From Verrucomicrobiia bacterium (lineage in GTDB: Bacteria > Verrucomicrobiota > Verrucomicrobiia > Limisphaerales > UBA11358): 64,000 bases of DNA. The translations under genes were made by a program, and so were the position numbers. Shown here one piece after another: positions 11,586-64,000 of the stretch. Below the pieces are notes generated by a model. It was given only the letters and a program-made list of their open reading frames with translations. It had not been told where the DNA came from and did not search any database. Each line of letters starts with the position of its first letter. Within the stretch, counting starts at the first letter, position 1. The DNA is taken from the NCBI GenBank assembly GCA_035605035.1, contig DATNHI010000106.1, positions 849 through 64,848 of the forward strand, given 5' to 3'.

Positions 11586-11755
11586 GCCCGAAGTCCGAAT
11601 ACCGAAATCCGACCCGTCCTCCGTAGCAGCACTGCGGAGGGTGGAAAGAAATCCGAATTGCGAAATCCGATCAAGTGAGGCGAGCACTCACGAGCATTTC
11701 GGGCTTCGGGTTTCGGCCTTCTTTTGGAATTCGGATTTCGGGCTTCGGATTTATC
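11586..11755. repeat. composite heptad-periodic inverted repeat (atccgaa / ttcggat units) with a nested cctccgtagcag..ctgcggagg hairpin
   Basis: Left side cccgaagtccgaataccgaaatccga...atccgaattgcgaaatccga. Right side cttcgggtttcgg...ggaattcggatttcgggcttcggattt. Confidence 0.8.
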
Positions 11756-12787: not shown

Positions 12788-12965
12788 GGGTGGCAGGAAA
12801 TCCGAAATCCGAATGCCGAAATCCGAAAGAAATCCGAATACCGAATTCCAAAAAAGCGCGGCGCACAATCACTGGCATTCCGGGTTTCGGATTTCGGGCT
12901 TCTTTCGGGTTTCGGATTTCGAGCCTCGGATTTTGGGCATCGGGTTTCGGATTTTGAGTTCATGG
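12788..12965. repeat. heptad-periodic inverted repeat filling the cydA-cydB spacer
   Basis: aatccgaaatccgaatgccgaaatccgaaagaaatccgaataccgaa ... ggtttcggatttcgggcttctttcgggtttcggatttcgagcctcggattttgggcatcgggtttcggatttt. Confidence 0.85.
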
Positions 12966-34185: not shown

Positions 34186-34322
34186 AAGCTCCAAGCACCA
34201 AGCGCCAATCTCCAGAGAAGCGCCAAATTCCGAACTCCAGGAAGTCTGACGGCAACGAGCGCGTTGTTTGGAATTTGAAGTTTGGAATTTCTCTGGTGCT
34301 TGGTGCTTGAATGTTGGAGCTT
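34186..34322. repeat. heptad-periodic inverted repeat in the truB-ribF spacer
   Basis: agctccaagcaccaagcgccaatctccagagaa ... ttctctggtgcttggtgcttgaatgttggagct, followed by a T-run. Confidence 0.8.
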
Positions 34323-37419: not shown

Positions 37420-37516
37420 CATTTACGATTTACGATTTTTGATTTACGATTTGCCGGTGCGCGCAAGTTGGCAAGGAGCGCGTAAATCGTAAATCGTGAA
37501 TCGTATATCGTAAATC
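37420..37516. repeat. heptad-periodic inverted repeat (atttacg units) downstream of rpoD, probable terminator-like structure
   Basis: atttacgatttacgatttttgatttacgattt ... gcgtaaatcgtaaatcgtgaatcgtatatcgtaaat. Confidence 0.8.
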
Positions 37517-48693: not shown

Positions 48694-49126
48694 TTGGAAG
48701 GGCTGTAAGCCGAATTCTGTCTTCACCCTTGCGGATGGAGAGAACCATTTGTCTCAGCAGCCGATACCCGGAACCCGTCCCGCGTTGGCGGGACCGGAGC
48801 GGGCCGCTCCGGAGTTCCCTATTTGGCCTTGCACCCGATGGGGTTTTCCGTGCCGCGTCGCTTGCGCTTCGCGCGGTGGTCTCTTACACCACCTTTTCAC
48901 CCTTGCCCCTCTGAAATTTCAAATTTCAAATTTGAGATTCCAAAGCGGCGGTCTGTTTTCTGTGGCACTGTCCGTCGGGACGGCTCGCGCCGCCGCCGCC
49001 CGCGTGTATCCTCTGAAATCTCAAATCCGAAATTTGAAATTCCAAAAGGTTACGCGGCATCGCGCCCTTTGGTGTTCGGACTTTCCTCTGCCGGCTCGCG
49101 CCGGCGGCGATTCTCCGCCCTTCCAA
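48694..49126 (-). ncRNA. rnpB: RNase P RNA, bacterial type A
   Basis: Minus-strand GGAAGGGCGGAGAAUCGCC...CAGAGGAAAGUCCGAACACCAAAGGGCGCGAUGCCGCGUAAC...CAGUGCCACAGAAAACAGACCGCC...AAGGGUGAAAAGGUGGUGUAAGAGACCACC...GCAAGGCCAAAUAGGGAAC...GACAGAAUUCGGCUUACAGCCCUUCC. P1 closes with GGAAGGGC/GCCCUUCC. Confidence 0.9.
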
Positions 49127-49280: not shown

Positions 49281-50984
49281 ATGGCTGAAAAAGACGATTA
49301 TCTGTTGGACTTGCTGGTGGACCTCGGCTCCGTGAATGCCGAACAGGTCGCCGCCGCCCGCCAGGAGGCGCAAACCGCCGGCGTGGGCGTGGTGGACCTG
49401 TTGCTGGCCAACAAAGTTATCCGGCCCGCCGATGTCACCCAGGCCAAGGCCGCGCAATTCGGCGCGGAGGTCGTCCAGCTCGCCAGCCTGCGGATCCCCG
49501 ACGAAGTCATTTCCGTCATTCCCCGCCACATCGCCAAAAAATACCGCGTCGTCCCCATTATGAAAAGCGATGGCAAGGTCGCCGTGGCCATCGCCGACCC
49601 GTCGGATCTGAATACGATTGATTCACTGACCCACCTGCTGAACGCGGAAATCGAACTCCGCGTGGCTTCGGAGCAGGACATTGAAAACGCGCTGGGGCGG
49701 TATTATGGCGGCAAGGGAGACTCGGTGGTGGACAAGGCAATCCAGGAACTGACCCAAAGCGAAGTCGAAGTGCCCGTCGGCGACATGGGCGATGACAGCT
49801 CGGTGGTGGACGCGGACGCGCCGCTCATCCGGTTGGTGAACCAGATCATCGCCGACGCGTTCAAGATGCGCGCCTCGGACATTCATCTGGAGCCATTGGG
49901 CAAGCGCTTCCGGCTGCGCTACCGCATTGACGGTTTGCTGCACGAAATGAAGGCGCCGCCCAAACGGCTGCAGGCGTCCATCATCACGCGGCTGAAAATC
50001 CAGTCGAACATGTCCATCTCCGAGCACCGCATCCCGCAGGATGGGCGTATCCAGTCCAAAGTGGGCAACAAGTTCATTGACCTCCGCGTATCGTGTTTGC
50101 CGACGAACCACGGCGAAAGCATCGTGATGCGTATCCTGGACAAGGAAGGGTTGCGGCTCGGTCTCGGAGAACTCGGTTTTTTCACGGACGACCAGCAAAC
50201 TTTTGAAAGGTTGATCGGCCTGCCCGACGGCATATTGCTGGTGACCGGCCCGACCGGTTCCGGCAAAACGACGACGCTTTATTCCTGCCTGCACTTTATC
50301 AACCGACCGGACCGGAAAATCATCACCGTCGAAGACCCGGTGGAATATATTTTGGGCGGCATCAACCAGGTCCAGGTCAATGAAGTCGTCGGCCTTACCT
50401 TTGCCGCCGCGTTGCGCTCGATATTGCGCCAGGCGCCGAACGTCATCATGATCGGTGAAATTCGCGACCTCGAAACCGCGTCCATTGCCATCAACGCATC
50501 GCTGACCGGCCATTTGGTCTTCTCCACGCTGCACACCAACGACGCGCCGAGCGCTGTCGCCCGCCTGATTGACATCGGCGTGAAGCCCTTTTTGGTCGCA
50601 TCGTCCACGCGTTCACTCATGGCGCAACGCCTCGTCCGCAAGGTTTGCAAAAAATGCGCGGCGCCCTATCAAGCCACCGAAGCCGAGATGAGCGCGCTGA
50701 GTCTCACCCTGGACAACATGAAGGACGCCCACCTGCAGAAAGGGCGCGGCTGCAGTGATTGCTCGAACACCGGCTGCCGCGGACGGTTTGGCATTTTTGA
50801 AATTTTCGTCGTTGACGACGAGGCGCGGAAATTGATTTACGACCGGGCACCGTCGTCCGCGTTGCGCGCACGCGCCCGGGAAATGGGCATGCGGACGCTG
50901 CGCGAGGACGGCATCCGCAAAGTGCTCGCCGGCCTGACCACGCCCGAAGAGGTCATCCGGGCAACCATTGGGGACGAAGCGTGA
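49281..50984 (+). CDS. GspE/PilB-family secretion ATPase with N-terminal MshEN/T2SSE_N domain (copy 1)
   Basis: Walker A GPTGSGKTTTLY, Asp box, MIGEIRD, His box, tetracysteine CKKC...CSDC. Confidence 0.9.
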   Translation: MAEKDDYLLDLLVDLGSVNAEQVAAARQEAQTAGVGVVDLLLANKVIRPADVTQAKAAQFGAEVVQLASLRIPDEVISVIPRHIAKKYRVVPIMKSDGKVAVAIADPSDLNTIDSLTHLLNAEIELRVASEQDIENALGRYYGGKGDSVVDKAIQELTQSEVEVPVGDMGDDSSVVDADAPLIRLVNQIIADAFKMRASDIHLEPLGKRFRLRYRIDGLLHEMKAPPKRLQASIITRLKIQSNMSISEHRIPQDGRIQSKVGNKFIDLRVSCLPTNHGESIVMRILDKEGLRLGLGELGFFTDDQQTFERLIGLPDGILLVTGPTGSGKTTTLYSCLHFINRPDRKIITVEDPVEYILGGINQVQVNEVVGLTFAAALRSILRQAPNVIMIGEIRDLETASIAINASLTGHLVFSTLHTNDAPSAVARLIDIGVKPFLVASSTRSLMAQRLVRKVCKKCAAPYQATEAEMSALSLTLDNMKDAHLQKGRGCSDCSNTGCRGRFGIFEIFVVDDEARKLIYDRAPSSALRARAREMGMRTLREDGIRKVLAGLTTPEEVIRATIGDEA

Positions 50985-51150
50985 GCAGTGGAATGCGTCC
51001 TTGACCAAATCAGTCCAAATGCGAATCTCCCGGCAAAAATTTTCACGTCCTGGCGCGCAACGATTCAATGCGCGCCCGGTCAAATCTGTGACCGACATGA
51101 TTCATGCGGCCGCTGTAGCCTGTTTAACGATTTAACCATTTAACGAACTC

Positions 51151-52266
51151 ATGTCTTACTCCATGTCTGATTTACTACAGTTGGTGGTGGCCGAAGGCGC
51201 CTCCGACCTGCACATCCGCGTTGGCACGCCGCCGGTCATCCGCGTGCACGGCATCCTGCACCGTGTCGAAGGCCCGTCGCTCAAGCCGGAGGACACCGAG
51301 GAATTAATGCGCAGCATCACCTCCGAGGAGCATATCCAGGGCACGCGCGAACGTGGCGGCGCGGACTTCGGGTTCGCGTTCGGCGAGGTGGCGCGCTTCC
51401 GTGTGAGCGTTTTCAAGGAGAAAGGCAATTTCGGCATCGTGCTCCGGCAAATTCCCAGCAAACTTCTGACAATGGAGGAAATCGGAATTCCGCCGAGCGC
51501 GAAGGAACTGCTCTACAAACCGCGCGGCCTGGTGTTGGTGACCGGCCCGACCGGTTGCGGCAAGACCACCACCCTCGCCACGATGATCAATATCATCAAC
51601 GAAGAACGGGACGAGGCACACATCATCACCATCGAAGACCCCATCGAATATTATCACAAGCACAAACGGGCGCTGATTACCCAGCGCGAGATCGGCGTGG
51701 ACGTGCCGAATTTTGCCGAGGGCCTGCGCCGCGCGTTGCGCCAGGACCCGGACGTGGTGCTGGTCGGCGAAATGCGCGACCTGGAGACGATTGACGCCGC
51801 CATCACCGCGGCGGAAACCGGGCACCTGGTCTTCGGCACGCTGCACACGACCGGCGCGGCCAAGACGATTGACCGCATCGTCAACGCCTTTCCGAACAAC
51901 CAGCAGGAACAGATTCGCATCCAGCTTTCGACGGTCCTCCAGGCGGTCATTTCGCAATTGCTGCTGCCGCGCATTGACAAGCCGGGGCGCGTGGCCGTTT
52001 TTGAAATCATGATCAACACACCGTCCATTTCCGCGCTCATCCGCGACAACAAAACGTTCCGCGTCCAGTCGGACATCCAGACCGGCGCCAAGTACGGGAT
52101 GGTGACGCTCGATTCGTTCCTGATTGACAAATATCTGCAAGGCCTGATCGCGCGCGAGGAAGTCATTACCAAGGCGCAGGACCCGACGACGATTCAACAG
52201 AAATTGCAGGAATTGGAACTGGCCCAGGCCACCGGCTCCGACACCGGGCCCAAATCAAAGGGCTGA
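51151..52266 (+). CDS. pilT: PilT-type twitching motility (retraction) ATPase
   Basis: [19 protein letters not shown]...[12 protein letters not shown]...[11 protein letters not shown]...[10 protein letters not shown]. Confidence 0.9.
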
Positions 52267-52276
52267 CCTTTTTCCC

Positions 52277-53983
52277 ATGGCCGAAGAAATTTCCAGTCCA
52301 TTGCTGTCGCTCATCAAGGAGCGGGAGCTGATTGACGACTTGCAATACGAAGAAGTCGTTGCCGAACTGAAGCGCACTGGCGCGCCTGTGATTGAGGTCC
52401 TGCAGGACTTCGGCGTCATGAAGCTCGACGACATCCTGCACGTGATGGCCGCCAACCTCGGCACCGAGGTCGTGTCGTTGCGCGACCGGGAATTTCCTCC
52501 CGCGCTGGTGCAGACGATTCCCGCCAAAGTCGCCCGCATGTATCACTGCGTCCCCGTCGCCTTGAAAGGCTCGACGGTCCAGGTGGCGCTGGCGGACCCG
52601 CTCGACCCGGCGCAGGCCGACGAAATCCAGTTTGCCGCCAAACAGGACGTGCAGGTGGTCGTGGCCGACCCCGCCGAAATCGAGAAGACCCTCGACCGGC
52701 TTTACGGCGCGGACGAAAGCGAAACCTTTTCGGAGATTCTCAAGGAGCTGGGCGCCGACACGGAAATCGCGCGCGAAGCCAGCGAGGCTGACGCCGACGA
52801 TGAAAAGCGCATGACCGAACTGGCCAACGAGGCGCCCATCGTAAAATTCGTCAATCTCGTGTTGCAACAGGCCATTCAGGACCGTGCGAGCGACATTCAT
52901 TTCGAGCCGTTCGAGACGGAATTTCGCATCCGTTACCGCGTGGACGGCGCGCTTTACGAAATGTCCCCGCCGCCCAAGCACCTGGCGTTGCCGGTCATTT
53001 CGCGCCTGAAAGTCATGGCCAACCTGAACATTTCCGAACGGCGCCTGCCGCAGGACGGCCGCATCAATTATGCGGTGGGGAACCGCCAGATTGACCTGCG
53101 CGTGTCCACGCTGCCGACGCAATTCGGCGAATCGCTGGTGTTGCGCGTGCTCGACCGTTCGGCGGTGAACCTGGAACTGGAATCGCTGGGCCTGCCCAAG
53201 CACGTGCAGGAATTCATGAAAGAGGTGATTCAACGGCCCAACGGCATTGTCATCGTCACCGGGCCGACCGGTTGCGGAAAAACGACGACGCTGTATTCCT
53301 GTCTGCGCCGCGTCAACGCGATTGACTCCAAGCTGCTCACGGCGGAAGACCCGGTCGAATATGACATCGAGGGCATCATGCAGGTGGCCATTCATGAGGC
53401 GGTCGGCATGACGTTCGGCAAGGCGCTGCGGTCATTTTTGCGCCAGGATCCGGACATCATCATGGTGGGTGAAATGCGCGACCTGGAAACCGCGCAGATT
53501 TCGATCCAGGCGTCGCTGACCGGCCACCTGGTGATGAGCACGCTGCACACGAACGATTCCGCGGGCGCGGTCACGCGTATGATTGACATGGGCGTCGAGC
53601 CGTTTTTGATTTCCTCGACCCTGATGGCCGTGCTGGCCCAGCGGCTCGTGCGGGTCATTTGCAAGAATTGCCAGACGCCCTTTGAGCCGACGGAGGACCA
53701 GTTGGCGCTGTTGAATCTTTCGCCGCATGATTTGGGCGACAAGGTGTTTCATTACGGGCGCGGCTGCTCGAACTGCAACGACACCGGCTACAAGGGCCGG
53801 AAAGGTATTTTTGAATTGCTCATCATCAACGAACCTATTCGCGCCCTCATCAACGAACGCGCGCCGACGGTGGTGTTGCGGCAGAAAGCCATCGAATTGG
53901 GCATGGTGACCTTGCGCGAAGACGGCTTGCGCAGCATCTTTGAAGGTGATACAACCATCGAGGAAGTCGTCAAATATACTTAA
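52277..53983 (+). CDS. GspE/PilB-family secretion ATPase with N-terminal T2SSE_N domain (copy 2)
   Basis: [23 protein letters not shown]...CSNC. Same architecture as copy 1. Confidence 0.9.
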
Positions 53984-53988
53984 CCGCT

Positions 53989-55290
53989 ATGCCGAAATTC
54001 AATTACGTGGCCCTGGACGCCCGCGGCAACGAAACGAAGGGCAGCCTGGACGTCGCCACTCAGAACGAGGCCATTGGCCGTGTCAAGGAGATGGGCCTGT
54101 TCCCGACCAAAATCGCCGAGGCTGAAAAAGTCCAGGAAAAGCAGGCCGGCCGGAAGGCGAAGACCGGCGGCAAAAAAGGCGGCGGCGGCGCGCTGAATAT
54201 CCAGATCAAAATCCCCGGTCTCAGCGGCCGGGTAAAACAAAAAGTGTTGACGGCCTTCACCCGGCAACTGGCGACGCTGGTGGATGCCGGCCTGCCCCTC
54301 CTGCGCGGGTTGCGCGTCCTCGAAAAACAGGAGCGCAACGCGGCGCTCAAAACCATCATCGGCGAACTGGCCCTGGCGATCGAGGGGGGCAGCACTTTTT
54401 CCGAGGCGCTGGCGCAACATCCCAAAACCTTCAATCGTCTGTACGTGAACATGGTCAAGGCGGGCGAGCTGGGCGGCGTGCTGGAAGTGGTCTTGAAACG
54501 ACTGGCCGAATTCGCCGAAAAAGCGCAGAAGATCAAAGGCAAGATCAAGGCCGCGCTGTTTTATCCGGTGGCCGTGATGATTGTCGCCACCGGCATCCTG
54601 ATTCTGCTGATGACCTTTGTCGTGCCCCGGTTCAAGGAAGTCTTTGCCGGCATGGATGTCACCATGCCGAGATTCACGCTCATCGTGCTTGCGATCAGCG
54701 ACGCCATCCGGCACCACATTCTGCCAACCCTGGGCGGCTTGGCGGTGGCCTGGGTATTGTTGCTTCTGTTTCTCAAGACCAAAGTGGGCCGGCTCATGTG
54801 GGACAAATTCAAACTCAAGATGCCCGCCATCGGGCCGGTCATCAGCAAGGTGGCCATTTCCCGTTTCACCCGCACGCTTGGCACCCTCGTCAGCAGCGGT
54901 GTCCCCATTTTGCAGGCGTTGACCATCGTCAAAGAGACCGCCGGCAACATTGTCATCAGCAATGCCGTCGCCAAGGTCCATGAAAGCGTGAAGGAAGGTG
55001 AAACGATAACCGCGCCCCTGGAAAGTTCGGCGGTCTTTCCGCCAATGGTGGTCAGCATGGTGGACGTCGGTGAACAAACCGGCGCCTTGCCGGAAATGCT
55101 CCTGAGAATCGCCGACAATTACGAAGAAGAAGTGGACAACGCCGTCGCTGCCATGACCTCCCTGCTGGAACCGATCATGATCGTCGCTCTGGCGTTTATC
55201 GTCGGCAGCATCGTCATCGCCATGTTCCTGCCGTTGATCGCCATGATTACCCAGATGAGCGGCGGCGGCGGTGCCGGTGGTGAAGATTAA
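53989..55290 (+). CDS. pilC: GspF/PilC-family inner-membrane platform protein
   Basis: Duplicated T2SSF regions (FTRQLATLVDAGLPLL.. / FTRTLGTLVSSGVPIL..) and three TM segments. Confidence 0.9.
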   Translation: MPKFNYVALDARGNETKGSLDVATQNEAIGRVKEMGLFPTKIAEAEKVQEKQAGRKAKTGGKKGGGGALNIQIKIPGLSGRVKQKVLTAFTRQLATLVDAGLPLLRGLRVLEKQERNAALKTIIGELALAIEGGSTFSEALAQHPKTFNRLYVNMVKAGELGGVLEVVLKRLAEFAEKAQKIKGKIKAALFYPVAVMIVATGILILLMTFVVPRFKEVFAGMDVTMPRFTLIVLAISDAIRHHILPTLGGLAVAWVLLLLFLKTKVGRLMWDKFKLKMPAIGPVISKVAISRFTRTLGTLVSSGVPILQALTIVKETAGNIVISNAVAKVHESVKEGETITAPLESSAVFPPMVVSMVDVGEQTGALPEMLLRIADNYEEEVDNAVAAMTSLLEPIMIVALAFIVGSIVIAMFLPLIAMITQMSGGGGAGGED

Positions 55291-55415: not shown

Positions 55416-55709
55416 ATGGAGTTTGATTGGAATAATCCGCCCTTTGAAATGGGTGGTTCTTTGACTCAGCGGGAAATTGAAGAGTCCTTTGAGGATCCGT
55501 TTGCCATCCGGCTGTTGCCCGACTCGCCGCGTTTCGGCGTTCAGGCCCGGTTCTTCAATCTGGGCATGACGGCGGGCGGCGCCGGCGTTTTCAGCGCCTA
55601 TCGGACCAATGGCCGGTTGATCCGGGTTTTGCACGCCCGCGAATTTGACCCGGAAGAACGGTTTTTTTACCAGCGCAAACTGGACCAGACGCTGACGGGT
55701 GAGAAGTGA
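55416..55709 (+). CDS. BrnT/DUF497-like putative toxin
   Basis: MEFDWNNPPF...EIEESFEDPFAIRLLPD...GRLIRVLHAREFDPEERFFY follows the DUF497 pattern. Confidence 0.6.
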   Translation: MEFDWNNPPFEMGGSLTQREIEESFEDPFAIRLLPDSPRFGVQARFFNLGMTAGGAGVFSAYRTNGRLIRVLHAREFDPEERFFYQRKLDQTLTGEK

Positions 55710-55712
55710 CCA

Positions 55713-55798
55713 ATCTGGGGTTTGGGGTCTTGGGTCTGGGGTCCGGGTGCTGAAATCGGTCAGCCCCGGAACCGAGACGCCAGAACCCAGGCCCAAAC
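55713..55798. repeat. heptad-periodic inverted repeat between the toxin and antitoxin genes
   Basis: tctggggtttggggtcttgggtctggggtccggg ... ccccggaaccgagacgccagaacccaggcccaaac. Confidence 0.75.
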
Positions 55799-55803
55799 TT
55801 GAC

Positions 55804-56079
55804 ATGCGAACCTTTGCCAACTGGGAAGACGTGCCGCTCTTCGACAGCGAAGCGGCCGAGGCGAGCTTCTGGTCGGAGAACCGGCCGGACTTGCGCCTGA
55901 TGGAGGCGGCCACCGCCGGGAACGCGGAAGCCTCCGAATCCGTGACCATCACGCTGCGGATGGACCCGCGGATGCTGGCGCGCATCAAGCGGGTGGCCCG
56001 GACCCGCTATTTGAATTATCAGAGTATGATCAAGCAATGGTTGAGCGAACGGATGGAAGACGAACTGCGTGAAAAATAA
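55804..56079 (+). CDS. BrnA/CopG-type putative antitoxin
   Basis: FDSEAAEASFWSENRPDL...ITLRMDPRMLARIKRVARTRYLNYQSMIKQWLSERME matches the CopG-antitoxin pattern (..FW..; I.IRL; YQSLIK.WL.ERL). ATG 55804 preferred over ORF track 55699. Confidence 0.65.
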   Translation: MRTFANWEDVPLFDSEAAEASFWSENRPDLRLMEAATAGNAEASESVTITLRMDPRMLARIKRVARTRYLNYQSMIKQWLSERMEDELREK

Positions 56080-56871
56080 GTGAACGCCATGAAGACGAAA
56101 TCTCGAATGTCGAATGCCCAATGCCGGACTGAAAAGCGAGGCCGTCGCGATTTTGTCATTCGTCATTCGACATTCGACATTCGTGCCTTCACCCTCATCG
56201 AACTGCTCACCGTCATGGCCATCATCGCCGCGCTGGCGGCGTTCCTGTTCCCCGTGGTGGGGCGCATCAAGCGGCAGCAATACATCAAGAACGCGACGGC
56301 GGAAATGGAACAGTTGGAGACGGCCCTTGACCGCTACAAGGCCGCCTACGGCTTCTACCCGCCGGACAATCCATGCAACCCCTTGGTCAACCAGCTCTAC
56401 TTTGAACTGTTGGGAACGACCAATTTGGCTGTTCCTCCTGCCGCGCCGTTCTATCAATCGCTTGACGACCCCACCGTGCAACTCAAGCAATCCGACTTTG
56501 CCAATGCTTTCGGCACCATGGCCGGGAACAATTGCGTGAGCGGTTTTATGAATTGCAGCAAGCCCGGTTCGAGCGAGGACACGCCCAAGGCCCAAAACTT
56601 CCTGCCCAATTTGAGACCCAACCAGACCACCCTCTACAGTAACAACCTTGTCGGGTTAAAATTGATCATCACTTCCGTCAAAGGGCCGGACGTGACGTAC
56701 AAGCCGCTGGGCCTCGGCGCGCCCGACATCAATCCCTGGCGCTACAATTCGTCGAGCCCGACGAACAATCCCGGCGCCTATGACCTGTGGGTCCAACTGG
56801 TAATCAGCGGGAAAACGAATCTCATCTGCAATTGGAACAAGCAAGTGCAATTGAACAGCCCGCTGCCCTGA
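56080..56871 (+). CDS. GspG-like pseudopilin (prepilin-type N-terminal domain)
   Basis: AFTLIELLTVMAIIAALAAFLFPV then AEMEQLETALDRYKAAYGFYPPDN. True start uncertain (GTG 56080, ATG 56089 or ATG 56107); all lie in or before the repeat. Confidence 0.75.
   Translation: MNAMKTKSRMSNAQCRTEKRGRRDFVIRHSTFDIRAFTLIELLTVMAIIAALAAFLFPVVGRIKRQQYIKNATAEMEQLETALDRYKAAYGFYPPDNPCNPLVNQLYFELLGTTNLAVPPAAPFYQSLDDPTVQLKQSDFANAFGTMAGNNCVSGFMNCSKPGSSEDTPKAQNFLPNLRPNQTTLYSNNLVGLKLIITSVKGPDVTYKPLGLGAPDINPWRYNSSSPTNNPGAYDLWVQLVISGKTNLICNWNKQVQLNSPLP
56098..56185. repeat. heptad-periodic inverted repeat (cgaatgt / acattcg units) covering the pseudopilin leader region
   Basis: aaatctcgaatgtcgaatgcccaatgccgg ... ttgtcattcgtcattcgacattcgacattcgtg. 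Confidence 0.8.
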
Positions 56872-57118
56872 TTTTTATGTGCACCGCCTCAAAATCCGCA
56901 TTCGACCGCGGCGAACGGCTCCTGGCCGTTGACTGGCAGGATTGCCGTTGGCGCCCGCGCATCGCGGTGCAATCCCGGCAGGGCGAGGCTCCCGACGGGC
57001 CGTTGTCGCGGGCGGTTAAACGGTTGTCCCCGCCGCCGCGCCGCCCGGTTTCCCCACAACCTGACCTTGTTTCTTTCAAAACCATGAAGGCGATGCCGAT
57101 TTTCTCACGCCTCCGCCT

Positions 57119-58549
57119 ATGAAAACGGTTTATACTGCGATTATTTTCGTGCTGTTGATGACAGACTGTTTCGGCCAGTCTTTTTCGTATCCGACCAATG
57201 CCACGCTACGATGGAAACTGCCATTGGCTGGCGCATCGTTTGCTTTACCGGCTGTTGGGCCCGACGGAATAATTTATGTGATGCAGGATGCCTACCCTGG
57301 CCCTAATCTTTGGGCCATCAATCCAAACGGCACCACCAATTGGGAAAGCACCTTGTATGATGGCACGGTTTCGGTGCCAGTGGTTGGGTCCGACGGAAAT
57401 CTTTATATTTTCGCCACCACTAACTTCGGGAACTTCAATCTCTTCGCGCTCAACCTTGCTGATGGCAGCACGAATTGGTTCTATGTCGGCGATTCTGCTT
57501 CTGAAGGCTCTGATTGCCTCATGCCGGCACTTGATGCCGATGGCACCGTTTATTTTTGCACAAGCGCCGGCGCTATTGATGCCGTTACGAATGGTGTGCT
57601 TGAATGGTCGGCTCTTGGCGATATCGGTCTGGCGGATGGTTCGCCGGTGGTCGGGGCCGACGGCACAATTTATGCCTTTGCGGATGATTCACCACTGCAA
57701 TTCTACGCATTGAATGCCGATGGTTCTTTGAAATGGTCAACGAATTATCCCGGAGTCAGTTTTCCAGCTTATCCTCCGGCCATCGCAGCGGACGGCACCA
57801 TCTATTTTTCCGGCGGTCAGTATTTTTGTGCAGTTAATCCCGCCGATGGTTCAATCGAGTGGGAATTTTCAGCGGCAAATTTTGCGTTTAATTTTGAAAA
57901 TCCTGAAGTTGGCCCGAATGGGACAATTTATATCGAAGCCGTTTCTGACTCAGCTAATATAGCTACTGCTTATACGAATTTATTGTATGCACTCGCGCCG
58001 AACGGCACGGTTGAGTGGACCTTCCCCTTGCCTCAATACTATTCAGCTCATCCCCCGTCATTTCACGAATCCTCGTGTGCGATTGCCGCCGATGGAGAGA
58101 TTTATGTGACTACCACGGCTGGCACGGTTTACTCCATTGCTCCCAATGGGACCATGAACTGGTCGTTTCACACAAATTCAACCGGCTTGCACGCGCCCGT
58201 CATTGGGCCGGACGGCACAGTTTATGTGGACAGTTATGATAATGCCAATCTGTTTGCGTTTTACGGCCCCGCTCCGGTAGCTTGCAGTGCCTGGCCGCAA
58301 TTCAATAAAAATTCGAGACATGTTACCGCCGCCGCAACGGCGTATTTGAGCTCACTATTCATGCGCACCAACGGGTTTCAATTCAACATTACCGGAACCA
58401 GCAACCAGCCGGTTTGTTCCTGTGCCTCCAGTGACCTTGTGAACTGGACCAATATCGGCCGGATTGTTTTAACGAACGGAACTGCAAGTTTTGTGGATGC
58501 CCAATCCACTAATTTCCCGCGCCGATTTTATCGAGCTTTGCCGCAATAG
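57119..58549 (+). CDS. secreted PQQ-like/BamB-like beta-propeller repeat protein with C-terminal beta-sandwich-like tail
   Basis: Repeats DG.IY......L.A.N..DGS..W. Signal-like MKTVYTAIIFVLLMTDCFG. C-terminal ...FQFNITGTSNQP...SSDLVNWTNIG...FVDAQSTNFPRRFYRALPQ. AT-richer than flanks. Confidence 0.7.
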   Translation: MKTVYTAIIFVLLMTDCFGQSFSYPTNATLRWKLPLAGASFALPAVGPDGIIYVMQDAYPGPNLWAINPNGTTNWESTLYDGTVSVPVVGSDGNLYIFATTNFGNFNLFALNLADGSTNWFYVGDSASEGSDCLMPALDADGTVYFCTSAGAIDAVTNGVLEWSALGDIGLADGSPVVGADGTIYAFADDSPLQFYALNADGSLKWSTNYPGVSFPAYPPAIAADGTIYFSGGQYFCAVNPADGSIEWEFSAANFAFNFENPEVGPNGTIYIEAVSDSANIATAYTNLLYALAPNGTVEWTFPLPQYYSAHPPSFHESSCAIAADGEIYVTTTAGTVYSIAPNGTMNWSFHTNSTGLHAPVIGPDGTVYVDSYDNANLFAFYGPAPVACSAWPQFNKNSRHVTAAATAYLSSLFMRTNGFQFNITGTSNQPVCSCASSDLVNWTNIGRIVLTNGTASFVDAQSTNFPRRFYRALPQ

Positions 58550-58562
58550 CCGGTTTAATTTT

Positions 58563-59354
58563 ATGAAAAACATTTCAAATTATTGGCGCCGCCCGCGCGC
58601 GGGTTTCACTCTCGTCGAACTCCTCACCGTCATCGCCATCATCGCCATCCTGGCGTCCATGCTGTTGGTGGTGCTGTCGGCGGCCAAAAAGCACGCGTTA
58701 AGGGTCCAGGCGCACACGGAGGTGGTGGAAATCGCCAATGCCATCGAGAAATACGATTCGGATTACGGACGGTTCCCGGTTTCGACCAACGCGCAATTGG
58801 CGGCCTCGGCGGCGAAGAGCGACTTCACGTACGGCTGGGTGTTCAATACGCCGTCCACTCCGTGTCAAGTTGAGACTTACTTCACCAGCGGCGTCATTCA
58901 AAGCAACGCCGAGGTCATCGCGATCCTGATGGACAACACCACGCTCGCCAACGGGGTGAACACCAACCATGTCAAGAATCCGCAGCAAACCATCTTCCTG
59001 AACGCCAGAATGTCGGGCTACGACCCGTCGGTGGATAAAGGGCAAGCGCCGGGCGGCGTGGACGTGAACGGCGTTTATCGCGACCCGTGGGGCAATCCCT
59101 ACATCATCAGCATGGACCTGAGCTACGACGAAAGTTGCAAGGACTCGTTTTACTGCCGCACCCTGGTTTCCAATTCCGCCGGGTTAAACTCGAATCCGGG
59201 CTTGAACGGCCTGGTCAATCCCAACAACAGCAAAGACAATTTCCAATACCACGGCAAGGTCATGGTCTGGTCCGCCGGGCCGGACGGGCAAATTGATCCG
59301 AGGAGCAACGCCAATGCCGGCGTCAACAAAGACAACGTGTTGAGCTGGCAGTAA
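58563..59354 (+). CDS. gspG: GspG-type major pseudopilin
   Basis: Canonical leader MKNISNYWRRPRAG|FTLVELLTVIAIIAILA and C-terminal DPWGNPY motif. ATG 58563 preferred over ORF track 58491. Confidence 0.85.
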   Translation: MKNISNYWRRPRAGFTLVELLTVIAIIAILASMLLVVLSAAKKHALRVQAHTEVVEIANAIEKYDSDYGRFPVSTNAQLAASAAKSDFTYGWVFNTPSTPCQVETYFTSGVIQSNAEVIAILMDNTTLANGVNTNHVKNPQQTIFLNARMSGYDPSVDKGQAPGGVDVNGVYRDPWGNPYIISMDLSYDESCKDSFYCRTLVSNSAGLNSNPGLNGLVNPNNSKDNFQYHGKVMVWSAGPDGQIDPRSNANAGVNKDNVLSWQ

Positions 59355-59360
59355 TCCCCA

Positions 59361-59454
59361 AAAGCTAAAGGCTAAATGCTAAAGTCTAAAATACAGCTTG
59401 TGCGCCGGGCGCGGGAAAGAAGTTCAGCCTTTAGCCTTCAGCCTTTGGCCTTGG
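59361..59454. repeat. heptad-periodic inverted repeat (gctaaag / ctttagc units) at a pseudopilin 5' end
   Basis: aagctaaaggctaaatgctaaagtctaaaa ... gttcagcctttagccttcagcctttggccttgg. Confidence 0.8.
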
Positions 59455-60293
59455 TTTGCTCCGCCTTCACGCTCATCGAGCTGCTGGTGGTGATTTCCAT
59501 CCTCGGCATCCTCGCCGCGTTGACCGTGCCGGCGTTCAAAAATTTCGGCAAATCAAGCGTCAACCTCAGCGCCTCGCGGCAGATGCTCGACGCCGTGGCG
59601 CGCGCGCGCCAGCTCGCCATGAGCCAGCGCACCACCGTTTATATGGTCTTCGTCCCGACGAATTTCTGGAACGGCAACTCGGGGAGCTGGCCCAACAGTT
59701 GGTGGAGCGGTCCGCCCGGCCCCGGCCTGACGCCCGCGCAAAAAACCGCCGCCACCAATCTGTGCAGCGACCAATTGAGCGGCTACAACTTCATGGCCTA
59801 CGGCGCGATGGGCGATCAGCCCGGCCAGCATGCCTGGCATTATCTCGGATCGTGGCAGACGCTGCCCGACGGCGCGTTCATCGCCCAGTGGAAATTTGGT
59901 CCAAGTTATTTGACCAATTACGTGATTGACCTGGTCAATGGCGCCACCTACCCCGTCGCCGGGTTTCAGCGGACGACCGGTTTTATTCCGTTCCCGACCC
60001 AGGATTCGCCCATCGCGACCACCGTAACGAACCTGCCTTACCTCGCGTTCAATTATCTCGGCCAGTTGACCACCGAAGAATTGACGCCCGCGCCGCTGAC
60101 GCGGGACGCCTATGTCCCGCTGGCGCGCGGCAGCGTGCTGCCCGCCGTCAATCCCAACAAGGCGTTGCAATTCGGCAATCCCGACGTTGCGGAAATGCCG
60201 CCCGGCAACAGCACCAACATTTCCTACAACCTCGTTCACATCAACTGGCTGACGGGCCGCGCGGTCCTGGAATATCACAAAATGGGGCCATGA
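59376..60293 (+). CDS. minor pseudopilin (GspH/FimT-like)
   Basis: SAFTLIELLVVISILGILAALTVPAF...ASRQMLDAVARARQLAMSQRTTVYMVF. Start uncertain (ATG 59376 inside the repeat, or TTG 59451). Confidence 0.7.
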   Translation: MLKSKIQLVRRARERSSAFSLQPLALVCSAFTLIELLVVISILGILAALTVPAFKNFGKSSVNLSASRQMLDAVARARQLAMSQRTTVYMVFVPTNFWNGNSGSWPNSWWSGPPGPGLTPAQKTAATNLCSDQLSGYNFMAYGAMGDQPGQHAWHYLGSWQTLPDGAFIAQWKFGPSYLTNYVIDLVNGATYPVAGFQRTTGFIPFPTQDSPIATTVTNLPYLAFNYLGQLTTEELTPAPLTRDAYVPLARGSVLPAVNPNKALQFGNPDVAEMPPGNSTNISYNLVHINWLTGRAVLEYHKMGP

Positions 60294-61225
60294 AAATTTC
60301 AAGCGAGTTCAGAGTCCAGAGTCCAGAGTCCCGAGTCAACCGACTGCGGGCTATGGACTGTGGACTGCCGACTGTGGACTGTGGACTGCGGACTGGCAAC
60401 TGTGAGTCCGCCTTCACCATGGTCGAGATCGCCATCAGCCTGGCGATCATCGGCATTGCGCTCGTCGCCATCATCGGCGTGTTGCCCATCGGCTTGCGCA
60501 CGCAACGCGACAACCGCGAGGAAACCGTCATCAACCAGGACGCCACCGTGTTCATCGAAGCCATCCGCAACGGCCAGTTCGGACTGAATGATTTGACCAA
60601 TTACGTCTATGCCATCACGAATTATTGGGTTTGGTACAACCCCGATGGCACCCCCAACCGGAACGGAGTGAACGGTTACACCTATTCGGCTGCCTCGGCC
60701 ACGCCGCCGTATCCGACGGCCCCGTTCCCCATCAGTAGCGGGACGAACATCATCGGGCTTTTAAGCACACCGGAATACGTTTTTTTAGACAAAAACGGAA
60801 ACGGAAACTTTGTGCCGACGAACAACCTGTTCAGCGGCGGCATCAGCAACCACGTCGTCGCTTATGTCCGCTCCTTGAGCGGGCCGGCGGAGGAGAAACC
60901 GCCGCAGAACAACGACATCGTGGTGGGCGATGCGTTTGCCTACCGCATCCTGTGCGTGAACGCGCCGCTGGCGATGGACACGAATATGTTCACCCTCACT
61001 GCCTTTCAACCCAACCAGCCGCGGTACAACGCGGCGTTGACGGCCAGCCTGCATGAACTGCGGCTGACGTTTCTCTGGCCGCAACTGCCCAATGGCGCGT
61101 TGGGCGCCGGCCACCTGACCTTCCGCACGATGGTCGCCGGACAGGTGTCACAGATTTTCACCAATAACCAGTGGCTGTATTTTTACCAGCCGAATTCCTT
61201 TACCAACGTCGTCGCCGCGCAATGA
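60290..61225 (+). CDS. minor pseudopilin
   Basis: SAFTMVEIAISLAIIGIALVAIIGVLP. Start uncertain (ATG 60290, ATG 60353 or an in-frame GTG); all lie inside the repeat. Confidence 0.65.
   Translation: MKISSEFRVQSPESRVNRLRAMDCGLPTVDCGLRTGNCESAFTMVEIAISLAIIGIALVAIIGVLPIGLRTQRDNREETVINQDATVFIEAIRNGQFGLNDLTNYVYAITNYWVWYNPDGTPNRNGVNGYTYSAASATPPYPTAPFPISSGTNIIGLLSTPEYVFLDKNGNGNFVPTNNLFSGGISNHVVAYVRSLSGPAEEKPPQNNDIVVGDAFAYRILCVNAPLAMDTNMFTLTAFQPNQPRYNAALTASLHELRLTFLWPQLPNGALGAGHLTFRTMVAGQVSQIFTNNQWLYFYQPNSFTNVVAAQ
60305..60396. repeat. heptad-periodic inverted repeat (agtccag / tgtggac units) at a pseudopilin 5' end
   Basis: gagttcagagtccagagtccagagtcccgagtc ... ctatggactgtggactgccgactgtggactgtggactgcggactgg. 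Confidence 0.8.
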
Positions 61226-62277
61226 CTTCGAAATTTCAAATGACGCATTTGCATCGTGCGGGGAGCACACCCGCCCCGGGTGTGATTGGACGCGCCTCGC
61301 GTCCAATGATGCAGAATAGCGCGGCGGTTGCGTCCGGGAAATTTCCCCGCGTTGCCGGGGTTTCTCGCGAGGGCGCGAAAACCTGCACCCGAGGCGGGTG
61401 CGCTCCCCGCGCGTTCACCCTCGTCGAAGTCCTGGTGGTGATGACGTTGTTGTCGCTCATCGTGCTGGCATTGATGGCGGTGTTCAACAGCACGCAGACG
61501 GCGTTCCGCGCCAGTGTCACGCAGACCGATGTGCTCGAAGGCGGACGCGCGGCGGCGGACCTGATGGCGTCGGACTTGCGGCAGATGTCGCCGTCGCTCG
61601 GCGGCAGCAGCGCGTTTATCAACGGTTTTTACTCCCAGACGCCGGTCAATTTTTACGTCAACACCAATTCCAGCCTGCCGCTCGTGCAATCGCTGCCCGG
61701 CAGCACCGCGCAGCGGGTCAACGTGTTGGAGGGCTTTTTCGCCCTGGGCCGCGGCAACCTGAACGGCAGTCCGGCCTGGATCGGCGTCGGTTATGCGGTG
61801 TATCCGGGATCGCAAACCGATTTGAACCCGCTTTATCGCTTTTACCTGGCCACGAACGTCGCCGCCGCCAGTCCGCAGACGCTGTTCACCAACTTTACCT
61901 ATGCGGTCCTGAGCGGTGCGCTGACGAACTGGAGCCATCTGCTGGACGGCGTGGTGACTTTGACCGTGCATGCCTATGACACCAACGGTGTCTGGATGAC
62001 AAACGGCTACGCCTTCGGATACACCAAGCTCCCGAAGAACATGCTCCTGCTGCCGTCCGCTCCGGGTGCAACCGGCTTCTGCATGTTCAGCAACACGCTG
62101 CCCGCGTCCGTTGAGATTGAACTGGGCGTGCTCGAAGACCGCACGCTCCAGCGCGCCGCGACCTGGCCGAACGGTTCGCTGGCGCAAAGCAACTATCTCG
62201 CGCAGCAGGCGGGCAAGGTCCACCTGTTCCGGCAGCGCGTGACCATTCCCAACGTTGACCCCTCCGCGTACCAATGA
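61222..62277 (+). CDS. minor pseudopilin (GspJ/PilW-like)
   Basis: RAFTLVEVLVVMTLLSLIVLALMAVF...DLMASDLRQ. ATGA overlap start at 61222 or ATG 61306. Leader region full of GC palindromes. Confidence 0.65.
   Translation: MTSKFQMTHLHRAGSTPAPGVIGRASRPMMQNSAAVASGKFPRVAGVSREGAKTCTRGGCAPRAFTLVEVLVVMTLLSLIVLALMAVFNSTQTAFRASVTQTDVLEGGRAAADLMASDLRQMSPSLGGSSAFINGFYSQTPVNFYVNTNSSLPLVQSLPGSTAQRVNVLEGFFALGRGNLNGSPAWIGVGYAVYPGSQTDLNPLYRFYLATNVAAASPQTLFTNFTYAVLSGALTNWSHLLDGVVTLTVHAYDTNGVWMTNGYAFGYTKLPKNMLLLPSAPGATGFCMFSNTLPASVEIELGVLEDRTLQRAATWPNGSLAQSNYLAQQAGKVHLFRQRVTIPNVDPSAYQ
61255..61412. repeat. composite GC-rich palindromic element covering the pseudopilin leader region
   Basis: Outer arms gcggggagcacacccgcc and ggcgggtgcgctccccgc. 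Nested hairpin attggacgcg-cct-cgcgtccaat. Confidence 0.7.
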
Positions 62278-62283
62278 AGAACA

Positions 62284-62377
62284 AATTTACGATTTACGAT
62301 TTACGATTTACGATTGGGGAAAAATCGGCAAAGGCCGCTTCCTTCAATCATCAATCATCAATCATCAATCGTAAATC
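62284..62377. repeat. heptad-periodic repeat (atttacg x4 ... aatcatc x3, aatcgtaaatc)
   Basis: aatttacgatttacgatttacgatttacgatt ... caatcatcaatcatcaatcatcaatcgtaaatc. Confidence 0.8.
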
Positions 62378-62387
62378 CCAATCGGGC

Positions 62388-64000
62388 ATGGCCCTGGTCA
62401 TCACGCTGATTCTGCTCTCGGTGACGCTCATCATGGCCGTCGCGTTCCTGGCCGTCAGCCGCCGTGAACGCAACGCCGTCACCACCACCACCGACACCGC
62501 CACGGCCCGGCTGGCGGCCGACGCCGCGCTCGCCAACGCCAAGGCGCAAATCGTCGCCAGCATCTTCGCGACCAACGCCGCCGCCTATAACTTCGGCCTG
62601 CTCGTCTCCACCAATTACATCAACGGAGTGGGCTTTCTAACCGCTCCTCCGTCAAGCTACACCAGTCTTACCAACGTCAATTATAATTATCCGGGCGGTG
62701 CCCCCATCTCCGGCAACGACCTCATCCAAGACGTGGCCAATCTGTTCTATCTCCCGCGCGCGCCGGTCTATCTGAGCAACCTGGTCACGCACGCCGTGGA
62801 AAACCGCTTTTATTTGGATCTCAACCGCAATGGCGTGGGTGACCCCAATGGCTGGGTGACGAACGTGGACAGCTTTGGCCGCGGTTTCGGAACCATGAGT
62901 TTCCAGGTCGGCGACCCGGAATGGATTGGCCTGTTGGACCATCCGGACGCGCCGCATGGGCCGAAGAACCACTTCGTTGCGCGCTACGCCTTCATCGCCG
63001 TGCCCGTCGGCAATGCGCTCGACCTCAACGCCATTCACAACCAGGCGTACGACACCGTCGCCAACCGCCCGCTCATTCCCCCGAATAACGAATTCTTCCG
63101 CAATCAAGGCGTCGGCTCGTGGGAAATCAATCTGGCCGCTTTACTTGCGGATTTGAACACCAACGAGTGGGGTCAAATCATTGACTTGCCTTCAAATCTC
63201 GGTGGTCCGGCGGGCGGGAGCGGTTTTTATCAATATAACGAACCCTTTACCTTCGATCATGGGCGGGCTTTCAACGACGCACTTTACTTGCTGGCCCACC
63301 GTTACGGGAACGATTACCGGTTGCTGGCCCCGGTTGGAGGGAACAGCCCCAATGGATTATTTACGACAGCAGCCGTTTTCCCGCCGTTTCAGAACAACAT
63401 TGACGCTTACGACAACGGACCGTTGCAAACGGCCTTCGCTGACATCAATGTCAGCGGGCAGAACATTCTTTTTCCTTGGGTCGGCGCGGACAACACCAAC
63501 CAATTCTTCACAATTGGCGAATTGTTCAACACCAACGAAACCGCTGCCTTCGGGATTGACTTGCTCAACGCCAACGCGAGCTTTTTCGGCGGGACAACCA
63601 ATTCCACCTACGACCGCTATACGTTCTACCGGATGCTGGATCAATTGGGGTCCGATTCCGCGCCGGACTCGGGCAAGATCAATCTCAATTACTCCAACGC
63701 CGTCGTTAATATCACCAACGGTCTGGTGGCAAACATTGCCGTCGTGCCCAACGCGGAAACCAATTTCGTTGGCTGGACCAATTTCTTCCTGGCGGCCGCC
63801 GACCGGCTGCTGCGGACTTACACGACGAACTGGTTCCAGGGAAGCACGCTCGATTGTTACACGAATTACACGACCGTGACCAACGTGGTCTTTCAGGATC
63901 CGTCCAATTATCTGGCGACCTATTACGGCATCCACACCAATTACTTTTCCTATGTTGATTCGCTGGGCCGTTTCATTTGGAATGCGCCCAACGGAATTGG
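62388..64000 (+). CDS. large GspK-like / pilus-associated protein, C-terminus beyond the window
   Basis: Absent from ORF track (no stop in window). I hand-translated from ATG 62388 to nt 64000 and found no stop. MALVITLILLSVTLIMAVAFLAVSRRERN... hydrophobic N-terminus typical of GspK/PilX-like proteins. SGKINLNYSN resembles the GspK-type INLN motif. Confidence 0.7.
   Translation, partial: MALVITLILLSVTLIMAVAFLAVSRRERNAVTTTTDTATARLAADAALANAKAQIVASIFATNAAAYNFGLLVSTNYINGVGFLTAPPSSYTSLTNVNYNYPGGAPISGNDLIQDVANLFYLPRAPVYLSNLVTHAVENRFYLDLNRNGVGDPNGWVTNVDSFGRGFGTMSFQVGDPEWIGLLDHPDAPHGPKNHFVARYAFIAVPVGNALDLNAIHNQAYDTVANRPLIPPNNEFFRNQGVGSWEINLAALLADLNTNEWGQIIDLPSNLGGPAGGSGFYQYNEPFTFDHGRAFNDALYLLAHRYGNDYRLLAPVGGNSPNGLFTTAAVFPPFQNNIDAYDNGPLQTAFADINVSGQNILFPWVGADNTNQFFTIGELFNTNETAAFGIDLLNANASFFGGTTNSTYDRYTFYRMLDQLGSDSAPDSGKINLNYSNAVVNITNGLVANIAVVPNAETNFVGWTNFFLAAADRLLRTYTTNWFQGSTLDCYTNYTTVTNVVFQDPSNYLATYYGIHTNYFSYVDSLGRFIWNAPNGI

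Follow-up and report, generated by a model that had tools for sequence, protein, structure and literature searches.

Hairpin-forming repeat elements between start codon and cleavage motif in a pilin-like gene cluster of a Limisphaerales bacterium

How can the leader-coding regions of successive prepilin-type genes consist of repeat DNA, and is this DNA translated, tolerated or put to use? The question is raised by a stretch of 64,000 nucleotides (nt) from a Verrucomicrobiia bacterium (Verrucomicrobiota; Limisphaerales; UBA11358; GenBank assembly GCA_035605035.1, contig DATNHI010000106.1, positions 849 to 64,848, forward strand), here called the window and numbered from its first letter. In a preliminary description, four supposed pseudopilin genes, starting near 56080, 59376, 60290 and 61222, were said to have every upstream in-frame ATG inside or in front of an inverted repeat, and two readings were offered: tolerance of the repeats because the leader is removed, or gating of translation by the hairpins. 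All positions and start codons given there were found to be correct when re-checked against the sequence. The four genes do carry such repeats, and so does a fifth, gene E (start at 62274), which had been missed. In five consecutive pilin-like genes, designated A to E, a hairpin element is located between the start codon and the cleavage motif. The explanation favoured here, and considered probable, is that lineage-specific palindromic repeats accumulate wherever they are tolerated and that the discarded prepilin leader is such a place.

Anatomy of the leader elements

Four of the five elements (A, B, C and E) are inverted pairs of tandem 7-nt repeats, and the fifth (D) is a GC-rich palindrome. 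The leaders comprise 33 (A), 30 (B), 41 (C), 64 (D) and 38 residues (E), and that of the major pilin-like gene comprises 14. The pilin frame is free of stop codons in all five hairpin leaders, and each of the two other frames contains at least one stop. Between 6 and 10 Lys and Arg residues are found in the window leaders, against 1 to 5 Asp and Glu residues. Folding of the RNA was evaluated as z-scores against dinucleotide shuffles (200). In the sequences below, the cleavage site is marked by a slash.

Gene A (56089–56871, plus strand) has three candidate starts, namely GTG 56080 (less likely), ATG 56089 and ATG 56107, with the +1 codon at 56188; its orthologues begin with MKT. The leader is coded by 56089–56187 (MKTKSRMSNAQCRTEKRGRRDFVIRHSTFDIRA, 33 residues) and ends in DIRA/FTLIELL. 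The heptamer-repeat hairpin (56099–56181, plus strand) has arms of 25 nt (56099–56123 and 56157–56181) with 88% complementarity and a folding energy of −35.2 kcal/mol (z −2.78). Its 5' arm is made of CGAATGT-type units and its 3' arm of 4.3 copies of GTCATTC (period 7 at 56155–56184), and the loop encodes RTEKRGRRD.

In gene B (59376–60293, plus strand), the leader is coded by 59376–59465 (MLKSKIQLVRRARERSSAFSLQPLALVCSA, 30 residues) and ends in VCSA/FTLIELL. ATG 59376 lies within the 5' arm, so the cassette supplies its own start codon; GTG 59400 lies in the loop, and TTG 59445 and TTG 59451 lie at the 3' edge. The hairpin (59358–59448, plus strand) begins 4 nt past the upstream stop (59352–59354) and consists of 4.4 AAAGGCT and 3.9 AGCCTTT units, with arms of 26 nt (59358–59383 and 59423–59448), 85% complementarity and −38.1 kcal/mol (z −1.74). 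Taken alone, this fold is marginal (9 of 200 shuffles at least as stable).

In genes C, D and E, the start codon shares bases with the stop codon of the gene before it (ATGA), and the motif follows in the same frame after 114–192 nt. Gene C (60290–61225, plus strand), for which 61 orthologues with the FTM(V/I)EIA motif were collected, starts with ATG 60290 on the stop of B; ATG 60353 lies in the loop and GTG 60374 in the 3' arm. The 41-residue leader (60290–60412) ends in CESA/FTMVEIA. Its heptamer-repeat hairpin (60305–60404, plus strand; −58.8 kcal/mol, z −5.81, none of 200 shuffles as stable) has period-7 arms at 60305–60337 (4.7 GAGTCCA units) and 60342–60404 (7.7 GACTGTG units at 60342–60395, continuing to 60404); a mismatch recurs periodically in every unit. 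Gene D (61222–62277, plus strand) starts on the stop of C. Its leader (61222–61413, 64 residues) begins with (M)TSKFQ, similar to NTKFQ in the related locus L001, and ends in APRA/FTLVEVL. The GC-rich compound palindrome in it (61255–61413, plus strand; −110 kcal/mol, z −6.78) is not a heptamer array; a long outer stem (arms 61255–61282 and 61386–61413, 28 nt, 89% complementary, 103 nt apart) surrounds three small hairpins. No second copy was found in the window or in the 160 related loci, and no match in Rfam.

Gene E, which codes for a large GspK/'Verru_Chthon A'-like protein and runs off the window (62274–64000, plus strand), starts on the stop of D. Its leader (62274–62387, 38 residues) ends in SQSG/MALVITL, and the hairpin (62285–62377, plus strand; arms 62285–62316 and 62345–62377, z −3.94) has a perfect 5' arm of 4.4 ATTTACG units. 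In the 3' arm, three expected CGTAAAT units read CATCAAT, by which the TAA stops are lost at the cost of mismatches. The major pilin-like gene (58563–59354, plus strand) was rightly singled out earlier as the only one with a normal short leader: ATG 58563 opens a repeat-free leader of 14 residues (58563–58604, MKNISNYWRRPRAG/FTLVELL) that is unstructured (z +0.80). RNA structure around the starts, part of the earlier proposal, exceeded the shuffled controls clearly for C, D and E and less for A, and only marginally for B.

Translation, insertion and replacement of the cassettes

Related loci (80 from genomes and 80 from metagenomes; individual loci are numbered with the prefix L) were retrieved with the major pilin protein. 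The best match had 69–71% protein identity, and all informatively labelled loci belonged to Verrucomicrobiota subdivision 3/Limisphaerales. After three duplicate loci had been dropped, 547 prepilin motifs in 158 loci were searched for repeat arrays within 150 nt upstream. Heptamer periodicity was used for this purpose because the hairpin arms are imperfect; a strict inverted-repeat score flags just 15% of the leaders. Heptamer arrays were found upstream of 187 of the 547 motifs, and in about 2% of random windows (first pass, genome loci).

An in-frame ATG at or before the array was present in 154 of the 187 cases, compared with 8 in each of the two other frames. When any canonical start was accepted, 171 of 187 had one in frame at or upstream of the array, and 174 were open through it. 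The array ended 15 nt or less before the +1 codon in 153 cases, and ATG, GTG or TTG followed it in just 15. Because upstream ATGs are in frame and starts after the array are so few, translation through the hairpins is strongly indicated, and the earlier placing of the repeats inside translated leaders is borne out by these frame statistics. Stop trinucleotides in any phase occurred at 1.75 per 100 nt in leader arrays and at 4.35 in non-leader arrays (p = 1e-4). Such depletion has to extend to every phase, since an array of 7-nt units passes through all three phases when it is read. The TAA-containing units dropped in gene E are an example: the intergenic hairpin at 37421–37516, built from the same heptamer, retains CGTAAAT. 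Two further comparisons gave no information. Net charge of the leader did not differ between frame 0 (+5.5) and frame 1 (+5.9), which is evidence for neither side, and the antisense strand folded better by about 5 kcal/mol in 63 of 85 leaders. Mature coding segments were equally skewed (+4.0), so this sense/antisense test, including counts of G-U pairs, reflects composition.

It is hardly tenable that the hairpins are left untranslated, with initiation at a non-canonical codon (such as CTG or ATT) or at an occasional TTG just after the 3' arm, with very short leaders as the result and with the upstream ATGs as incidental. Such starts can be pointed to: TTG 59451 of gene B would give a leader of five residues (MVCSA), near-cognate codons lie near the 3' edges in A and C, and a canonical start follows the array in the 15 cases mentioned. 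Set against this, the frame bias of 154 to 8 and 8 would be impossible if the region before the motif were untranslated, stops are depleted in all phases, the length stays divisible by three when cassettes are swapped, and the array usually ends 0–5 codons before +1, which leaves no space for a basic leader. TTG 59451 itself is missing from all six other copies of its cassette family that were checked (four leaders of gene B orthologues and the C and D leaders of L026), and no credible downstream start of the kind that would have overturned the earlier proposal was found.

Comparison of orthologous leaders indicates that the cassettes were inserted into an ancestrally short leader. Hairpin-free orthologues have leaders of 9–14 residues (MKFRRPHFFRAESA/FTMIEIA, MKLSPLRRNSA/ and (V)KTVRCSSA/), and gene C of the window has retained the corresponding ends (MKIS and ESA/) around its cassette. 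Rapid replacement among close strains is likewise apparent from alignments of related loci. L011 and L140, whose flanks are 99.97% identical, differ only in the stretch of gene D from ATGAAA to the +1 codon, where each has a cassette unrelated to that of its counterpart (107 and 92 nt). The frame is kept in the two loci, with Gly at −1 in one case and Ala in the second. L083 and L089 have unrelated cassettes in the slot of gene A, one of which brings its own ATG. Unrelated cassettes are also present in the gene E slot of L102 and L110, with the frame kept from ATGAAA to G/VALVITL; here the upstream start is obligatory because the +1 codon is GTC, which cannot serve as a start. Homology to L001, which is about 90% identical to the window in nucleotide sequence, resumes in B and C within a few bases of the +1 codon. 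Preserved through these swaps were the frame, the absence of stops and a small residue at −1, and nothing else. No target-site duplications were visible at the cassette borders in the three strain pairs, and no transposition machinery was identified, although no search aimed at a transposase was made.

Cassette differences of this kind could in principle be chimeras, since repeats confuse metagenome assemblers: all loci except L019 (Limisphaera sp. VF-2) are contigs from metagenomes or metagenome-assembled genomes (MAGs), and repeat families recur within genomes. An assembly artefact is nevertheless barely conceivable. The cassettes, at 90–120 nt, are shorter than typical reads and lie between unique flanks, the same architecture recurs in over 100 assemblies made independently in different projects, and random chimeras would not keep the frame.

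The strain pairs also bear on switching. Gain or loss of a 7-nt unit by slipped-strand mispairing would shift the frame, and the leaders could then be contingency loci by which minor pilins are turned on and off. The unit is indeed not a multiple of three, the arrays are located in a coding leader, gene E has 4.4 perfect units, and the leaders are the most indel-rich parts of the strain-pair alignments. This reading is highly unlikely all the same: 171 of 187 leaders are in the 'on' frame in the assemblies and most of the others have a downstream start, the arrays are short (3–5 units) and mostly imperfect, and the identical array type occurs in non-coding gaps. When unit-number variation was sought within the same strain, the exact major pilin protein was absent from the contig index, and the DNA pattern spanning the gene C leader had no metagenome match; variation was therefore examined in strain pairs among the related loci. 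These showed replacement of whole cassettes in frame or no change (L087/L088), and no changes of single units were seen.

Cassettes can be grouped by sequence to a limited extent. The 417 arrays resolved into 117 heptamer types, few of them common; ATTTACG occurs at two window sites and in 22 loci. One cassette family, translated as MLKSK...SAFSLQPSAF, is found in gene B of the window, L002, L012, L024 and L026, where the start ATG is likewise shared, and in genes C and D of L026. In this last locus (6757–6869, 7659–7771 and 8535–8647), a single family provides the leaders of B, C and D in one genome. Its presence in three pilin genes of L026 suggests that it spread by copying or by gene conversion from one paralogue to another, with the conserved sequence that codes for FTLIELL as a possible anchor. 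In the B and D leader zones of L136, compared with L026 and L002, an identical 33-nt mini-palindrome, TCCGCCTCCGGCGAGACCTCGCCAAAAGGCGGG, was noted in the cassettes of two different pilin genes within a single genome. This nested insertion has a length divisible by three and resembles the small dispersed repeats that enter cyanobacterial heptamer arrays. The B and C leaders of distant loci (L029, L056, L075 and others) contain a different family of GC-rich palindromes, translated as ...RTAQRAVPT..., from which it would follow that several unrelated repeat families colonised the leader slot independently. Apart from a chance microRNA hit (E = 0.43), no Rfam match was obtained for the leader elements.

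The residue at −1 was recorded for all 547 motifs and was Ala in 325 (59%) and Gly in 222. The Ala/Gly counts by orthologue group were 46/23 (A), 28/46 (major pilin), 51/22 (B), 34/27 (C) and 43/9 (D), and the two residues alternate within every group, with or without a hairpin. In the window, A to D end in Ala, as described before, and the major pilin and E end in Gly. The isolate Limisphaera sp. VF-2 (L019) has pilins with Ala at −1 and lacks heptamer arrays in their leaders. The association of Ala with the repeats did not survive the comparison. Because Ala is the clade majority, is present in every group and can replace Gly in a swap, it would be a lineage-wide property of the pair of substrate and peptidase rather than a consequence of the repeats. 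Ala was reportedly the one −1 substitution that still allowed some cleavage of P. aeruginosa PilA in the 1991 work of Strom and Lory. Bacterial class III leaders are described as 'invariably' ending in Gly, with 6–26 residues, or about 15–30 residues in type IVb (PMC4471445; also PMC9360617).

Hairpins outside the leaders and the surrounding gene cluster

The preliminary description had overlooked that the same heptamer hairpins are a genome-wide intercistronic feature. The window contains ten hairpins of inverted period-7 arrays, nearly all with a different unit; four are in pilin leaders and six are between or beside other genes. Five of these six begin directly after a stop codon or fill a gap from stop to start. 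Among minus-strand genes, one follows the stop of a cydB-like gene (11584–11757) and one with GAAATCC units (12797–12954, minus strand) lies between the stop of a cydA-like gene (12966) and the start of the cydB-like gene (about 12787). A third, between truB and ribF (34186–34322), is followed by a T-run and is terminator-like. The hairpin of ATTTACG and CGTAAAT units at 37421–37516 (plus strand, z −7.15) fills the gap from the stop of a sigma-70-like gene (37418) to the next ATG (37519), another (48907–49049) is located between a glycosyl-hydrolase-like gene and the first PilB/GspE-like gene, and the last, with TCTGGGG units (55714–55800, plus strand, z −4.77), fills the gap between the stop of a small open reading frame (ORF) at 55709 and the ATG of an antitoxin gene at 55804. 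This last segment has been replaced in L001 and L083, with flanks about 90% identical. Period 7 is exceptional in the related DNA (about 0.94 Mb), with 208 arrays as compared with 2–8 arrays for each of periods 8–11.

A second class of palindromes in the window is GC-rich and distinct from the heptamer hairpins. The purM-like gene (9887–10978) contains one of them in frame (10616–10668, GTAGCGCAGACGTCTCGTCTGC...GCAGGCGGGACGCCTGCGCTAC), which codes for about 18 extra residues (VAQTSRLHSKSRRDACAT) without a counterpart in the solved PurM structure 2z01_A. Judged by sequence, this insertion into a housekeeping enzyme (AIR synthetase) is of the kind made by Rickettsia palindromic elements (RPEs). 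Further GC-rich palindromes were noted at 2535–2620, 6077–6148, 6231–6286, 8323–8383 and 9273–9344, with arms of 22–30 nt, 83–92% complementarity and −32 to −58 kcal/mol.

Upstream of the pilin-like genes, profile hidden Markov models (HMMs) identified four genes for machinery proteins on the plus strand: a PilB/GspE-like ATPase (49281–50984), a PilT-family ATPase (51151–52266; TIGR01420, 445.7 bits against a cut-off of 319.1), a second PilB/GspE-like ATPase (52277–53983) and a PilC/GspF-like platform protein (53989–55290; GspF, 411 bits, just under the cut-off). The PilB/GspE-like pair, at 616–625 bits, is just below the equivalog cut-offs of both PilB and GspE, and PilT alone in this set (49281–55290) exceeds its cut-off. 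Two full-length PilB/GspE-like ATPases on either side of a PilT-family ATPase (49281–53983) are neither a textbook type II secretion system (T2SS) nor a textbook type IVa pilus. Between the platform gene and the first pilin gene lie the small ORF (55416–55709, plus strand, no Pfam hit) and the gene of a CopG/BrnA-type antitoxin (55804–56079, plus strand, profile HMM). L001, L083 and L089 share this arrangement (55416–56079), with a nucleotide identity of about 90%; the hairpin that separates the two genes is the sole part to have been replaced. A gene for a secreted-looking beta-propeller protein of the PQQ/BamB type (57119–58549, plus strand, 476 residues) is located between pilin A and the major pilin; its product may be a pilus-associated or secreted partner.

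The pilin-like genes were scored against PF07963 (N_methyl, cut-off 21.2 bits), TIGR02532 (16.3 bits) and the GspG model TIGR01710 (88.85 bits). The PF07963 and TIGR02532 scores were 23.5 and 23.7 bits for A, 33.3 and 27.8 for the major pilin (T2SSG, 22.3 bits), 24.9 and 27.4 for B, and 24.5 and 21.1 for D, whose N-terminus is weakly GspJ-like (TIGR01711, 25.8 bits, below the cut-off). C reached 19.6 bits with PF07963, slightly under the cut-off, and E matched neither model, as is usual for GspK-like proteins. From +1 onward the proteins read FTLIELL (A), FTLVELL (major), FTLIELL (B), FTMVEIA (C) and FTLVEVL (D), each followed by a hydrophobic stretch; the corresponding region of E (MALVITLILLSV) lacks Glu5. 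Characters of class III signal peptides were found in A, the major pilin, B and D by HMM and in the adjoining ATPase and platform genes. Departures from them are the −1 residue, which is Ala in A to D, and the length of the leader, which is short in the major pilin alone. The name GspG for the major pilin could not be upheld, with 44.9 bits against 88.85 for TIGR01710 and a match limited to residues 14–76. The score under this cut-off and the PilT homologue in the cluster make 'type IV pilin-like' a safer label than the earlier 'GspG' and 'pseudopilin', and the PilT-family ATPase speaks for a retractile type IV pilus-like system over a T2SS.

Tolerated repeats, possible regulation and comparison with known systems

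Tolerance of the repeats because the leader is removed, one of the two readings offered earlier, is the best fit to the short hairpin-free leaders, the cassette swaps and the lack of compensatory evolution in the stems. Most cassettes consist of a 7-nt unit repeated in two arrays, one the inverse of the other, with a loop between them, and in this genome their usual site is the short gap between cistrons. In the pilin operon there is no such gap because the cistrons overlap (ATGA), and the cassettes instead sit in the leaders, in frame, and would be translated as leaders of 30–64 residues. Prepilin peptidase would be expected to remove such a long leader after Ala or Gly. Selection would keep four things, namely a length divisible by three, the absence of stops, a small residue at −1 and a mostly basic character, and the sequence of the cassette itself would drift and be quickly replaced. 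Two assumptions are made here: that the long leaders are cleaved, and that no function of the hairpin is required.

Several observations weigh against tolerance as the whole explanation. Leader zones make up little of the DNA in the pilin-centred loci but contain about three quarters of the heptamer arrays there, and in the window four of the ten heptamer hairpins are crowded into some 0.5 kb of leader. Hairpins are strongly under-represented in the presumably highly expressed major pilin (5 of 74, compared with 84 of 255 minor pilins; p = 2e-6), which suggests that they have a cost for expression or a use. Among close relatives, a slot has more often received a new cassette than been left empty. 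Cleavage of leaders of 30–64 residues after Ala is, for these proteins, itself assumed, and no prepilin peptidase (peptidase A24) was found among 28 window ORFs scanned, a scan that did not exhaust the window. With the one exception named above, the comparative loci are MAG or metagenome contigs.

The uneven distribution of the hairpins lends some weight to regulation by them, which is possible although doubtful. A stem-loop would hinder binding of the 30S subunit, and minor pilins would be made by coupled ribosomes (ATGA) or at a low rate. The start lies inside the 5' arm in B, 10–15 nt before the hairpin base in A, C and E and 33 nt before it in D, and three of the five starts overlap the upstream stop. 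The enrichment of hairpins in leaders relative to other DNA, their scarcity in the major pilin and the leader slots of close relatives, usually filled despite differing cassettes, also fit. On this doubtful reading, the hairpins would set a low ratio of minor to major pilin, or serve as sites of mRNA processing or stability, and the leader would simply be where an operon without spacers has room for them. The stems themselves argue in the other direction. No compensatory pairs (0 of 27) were found in seven copies of the MLKSK family, the one alignable family, and substitutions in it break pairs. The leader hairpins of A, B and E are weaker (z −1.7 to −3.9) than intergenic ones (z −4.8 and −7.2) and contain the mismatches that remove stops, many orthologues have no hairpin at all, and with composition controlled for, folding of the sense strand is not better than that of the antisense strand. 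A role of the hairpins in damping the translation of minor pilins is possible but unproven.

A stronger form of the same idea would be that Limisphaerales have turned the class III leader into a vehicle for a cis-regulatory module that can be exchanged. Cassettes would be actively produced, or swapped among pilin genes and strains, the amount of each minor pilin would be tuned by structure-dependent translational coupling, and the encoded peptide would be discarded by a peptidase evolved to accept very long leaders and Ala at −1. This is unlikely; if true, a dedicated mechanism that creates inverted heptamer arrays would be new biology.

Tolerated repeats in a discarded leader would be a natural example of selfish or structural repeat DNA that colonises a coding sequence at the one point from which nothing is kept in the product. 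Literature searches turned up no account of hairpins built from inverted heptamers in Verrucomicrobiota, of prepilin leaders encoded by repeats or of Ala at −1 throughout a clade, which is not proof of absence, nor a report of heptanucleotide repeats in Verrucomicrobiota or as in-frame parts of signal peptides. As far as this search shows, the elements would form a previously undescribed, fast-evolving family of inverted heptamer repeats in Verrucomicrobiota, with a possible role in operon expression.

Several known systems share features with them, and by sequence none of the three kinds of repeat compared below appears to be the family of the present elements. The RPEs and other repeats resembling miniature inverted-repeat transposable elements are palindromes of about 100–150 bp that lie within ORFs, keep the frame and add a peptide at a tolerated site (PMC10969869). 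The in-frame leader cassettes and the purM palindrome are alike in this respect, and both recurrence of the element and preservation of the frame are found here. The RPEs belong to a few conserved families, whereas the present arms are built of 7-nt units of more than 100 heptamer types; moreover, the favoured site is a peptide predicted to be cleaved off, so that the mature protein is unaltered, and cassettes are replaced between near-identical strains. Over-represented, mostly intergenic heptanucleotide repeats (cyanobacterial short tandemly repeated repetitive sequences and GGGGA(T/C)T; Xanthomonas, GGGAATC; Beggiatoaceae, TAACTGA) have a period of 7, a few copies per set and positions often beside start codons, vary much in length and sequence between close relatives and are occasionally arranged as inverted stem-loops (PMC4692102, PMC4679880). 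One or a few units per lineage, mostly direct, are typical of them, as opposed to nearly one unit for each site and inverted pairs in the present case. In the opa genes of Neisseria, CTCTT repeats in the region coding for the signal peptide are perfect, numerous and demonstrably phase-variable. Repeats that are not a multiple of three, in a cleaved N-terminal peptide of a surface protein, are common to both; those described here are short, imperfect and paired in hairpins, and no switching was seen.

The pilin-like genes themselves have their nearest likeness in the Verru_Chthon cassette, since the best or only subfamily matches of B, C, D and E were Verru_Chthon D (TIGR02596), B (TIGR02598), C (TIGR02599) and A (TIGR02600). 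Membership was rejected, as the scores are far below the cut-offs (32.9 against 70, 23.4 against 51.4, 28.7 against 256.5 and 20.1 against 332.3 bits, respectively) and only the N-terminal helices match; the likeness appears to be that of an analogous prepilin-type set in fixed order that ends in a very large protein. With class III signal peptides, the present leaders share a net-basic hydrophilic stretch, the F-T-L-I-E motif, a hydrophobic helix and adjoining PilB/PilT/PilC-type genes. They differ in that leaders of 6–26 residues ending in Gly (PMC4471445) are replaced by repeat-encoded leaders of 30–64 residues, with Ala at −1 in 59% of the motifs of the clade. The prepilin leader would accordingly be stretchable, across a whole bacterial order, by essentially arbitrary repeat-encoded sequence, which would bear on the rules for pilin prediction, on the calling of gene starts in Limisphaerales MAGs and on the specificity of prepilin peptidase.

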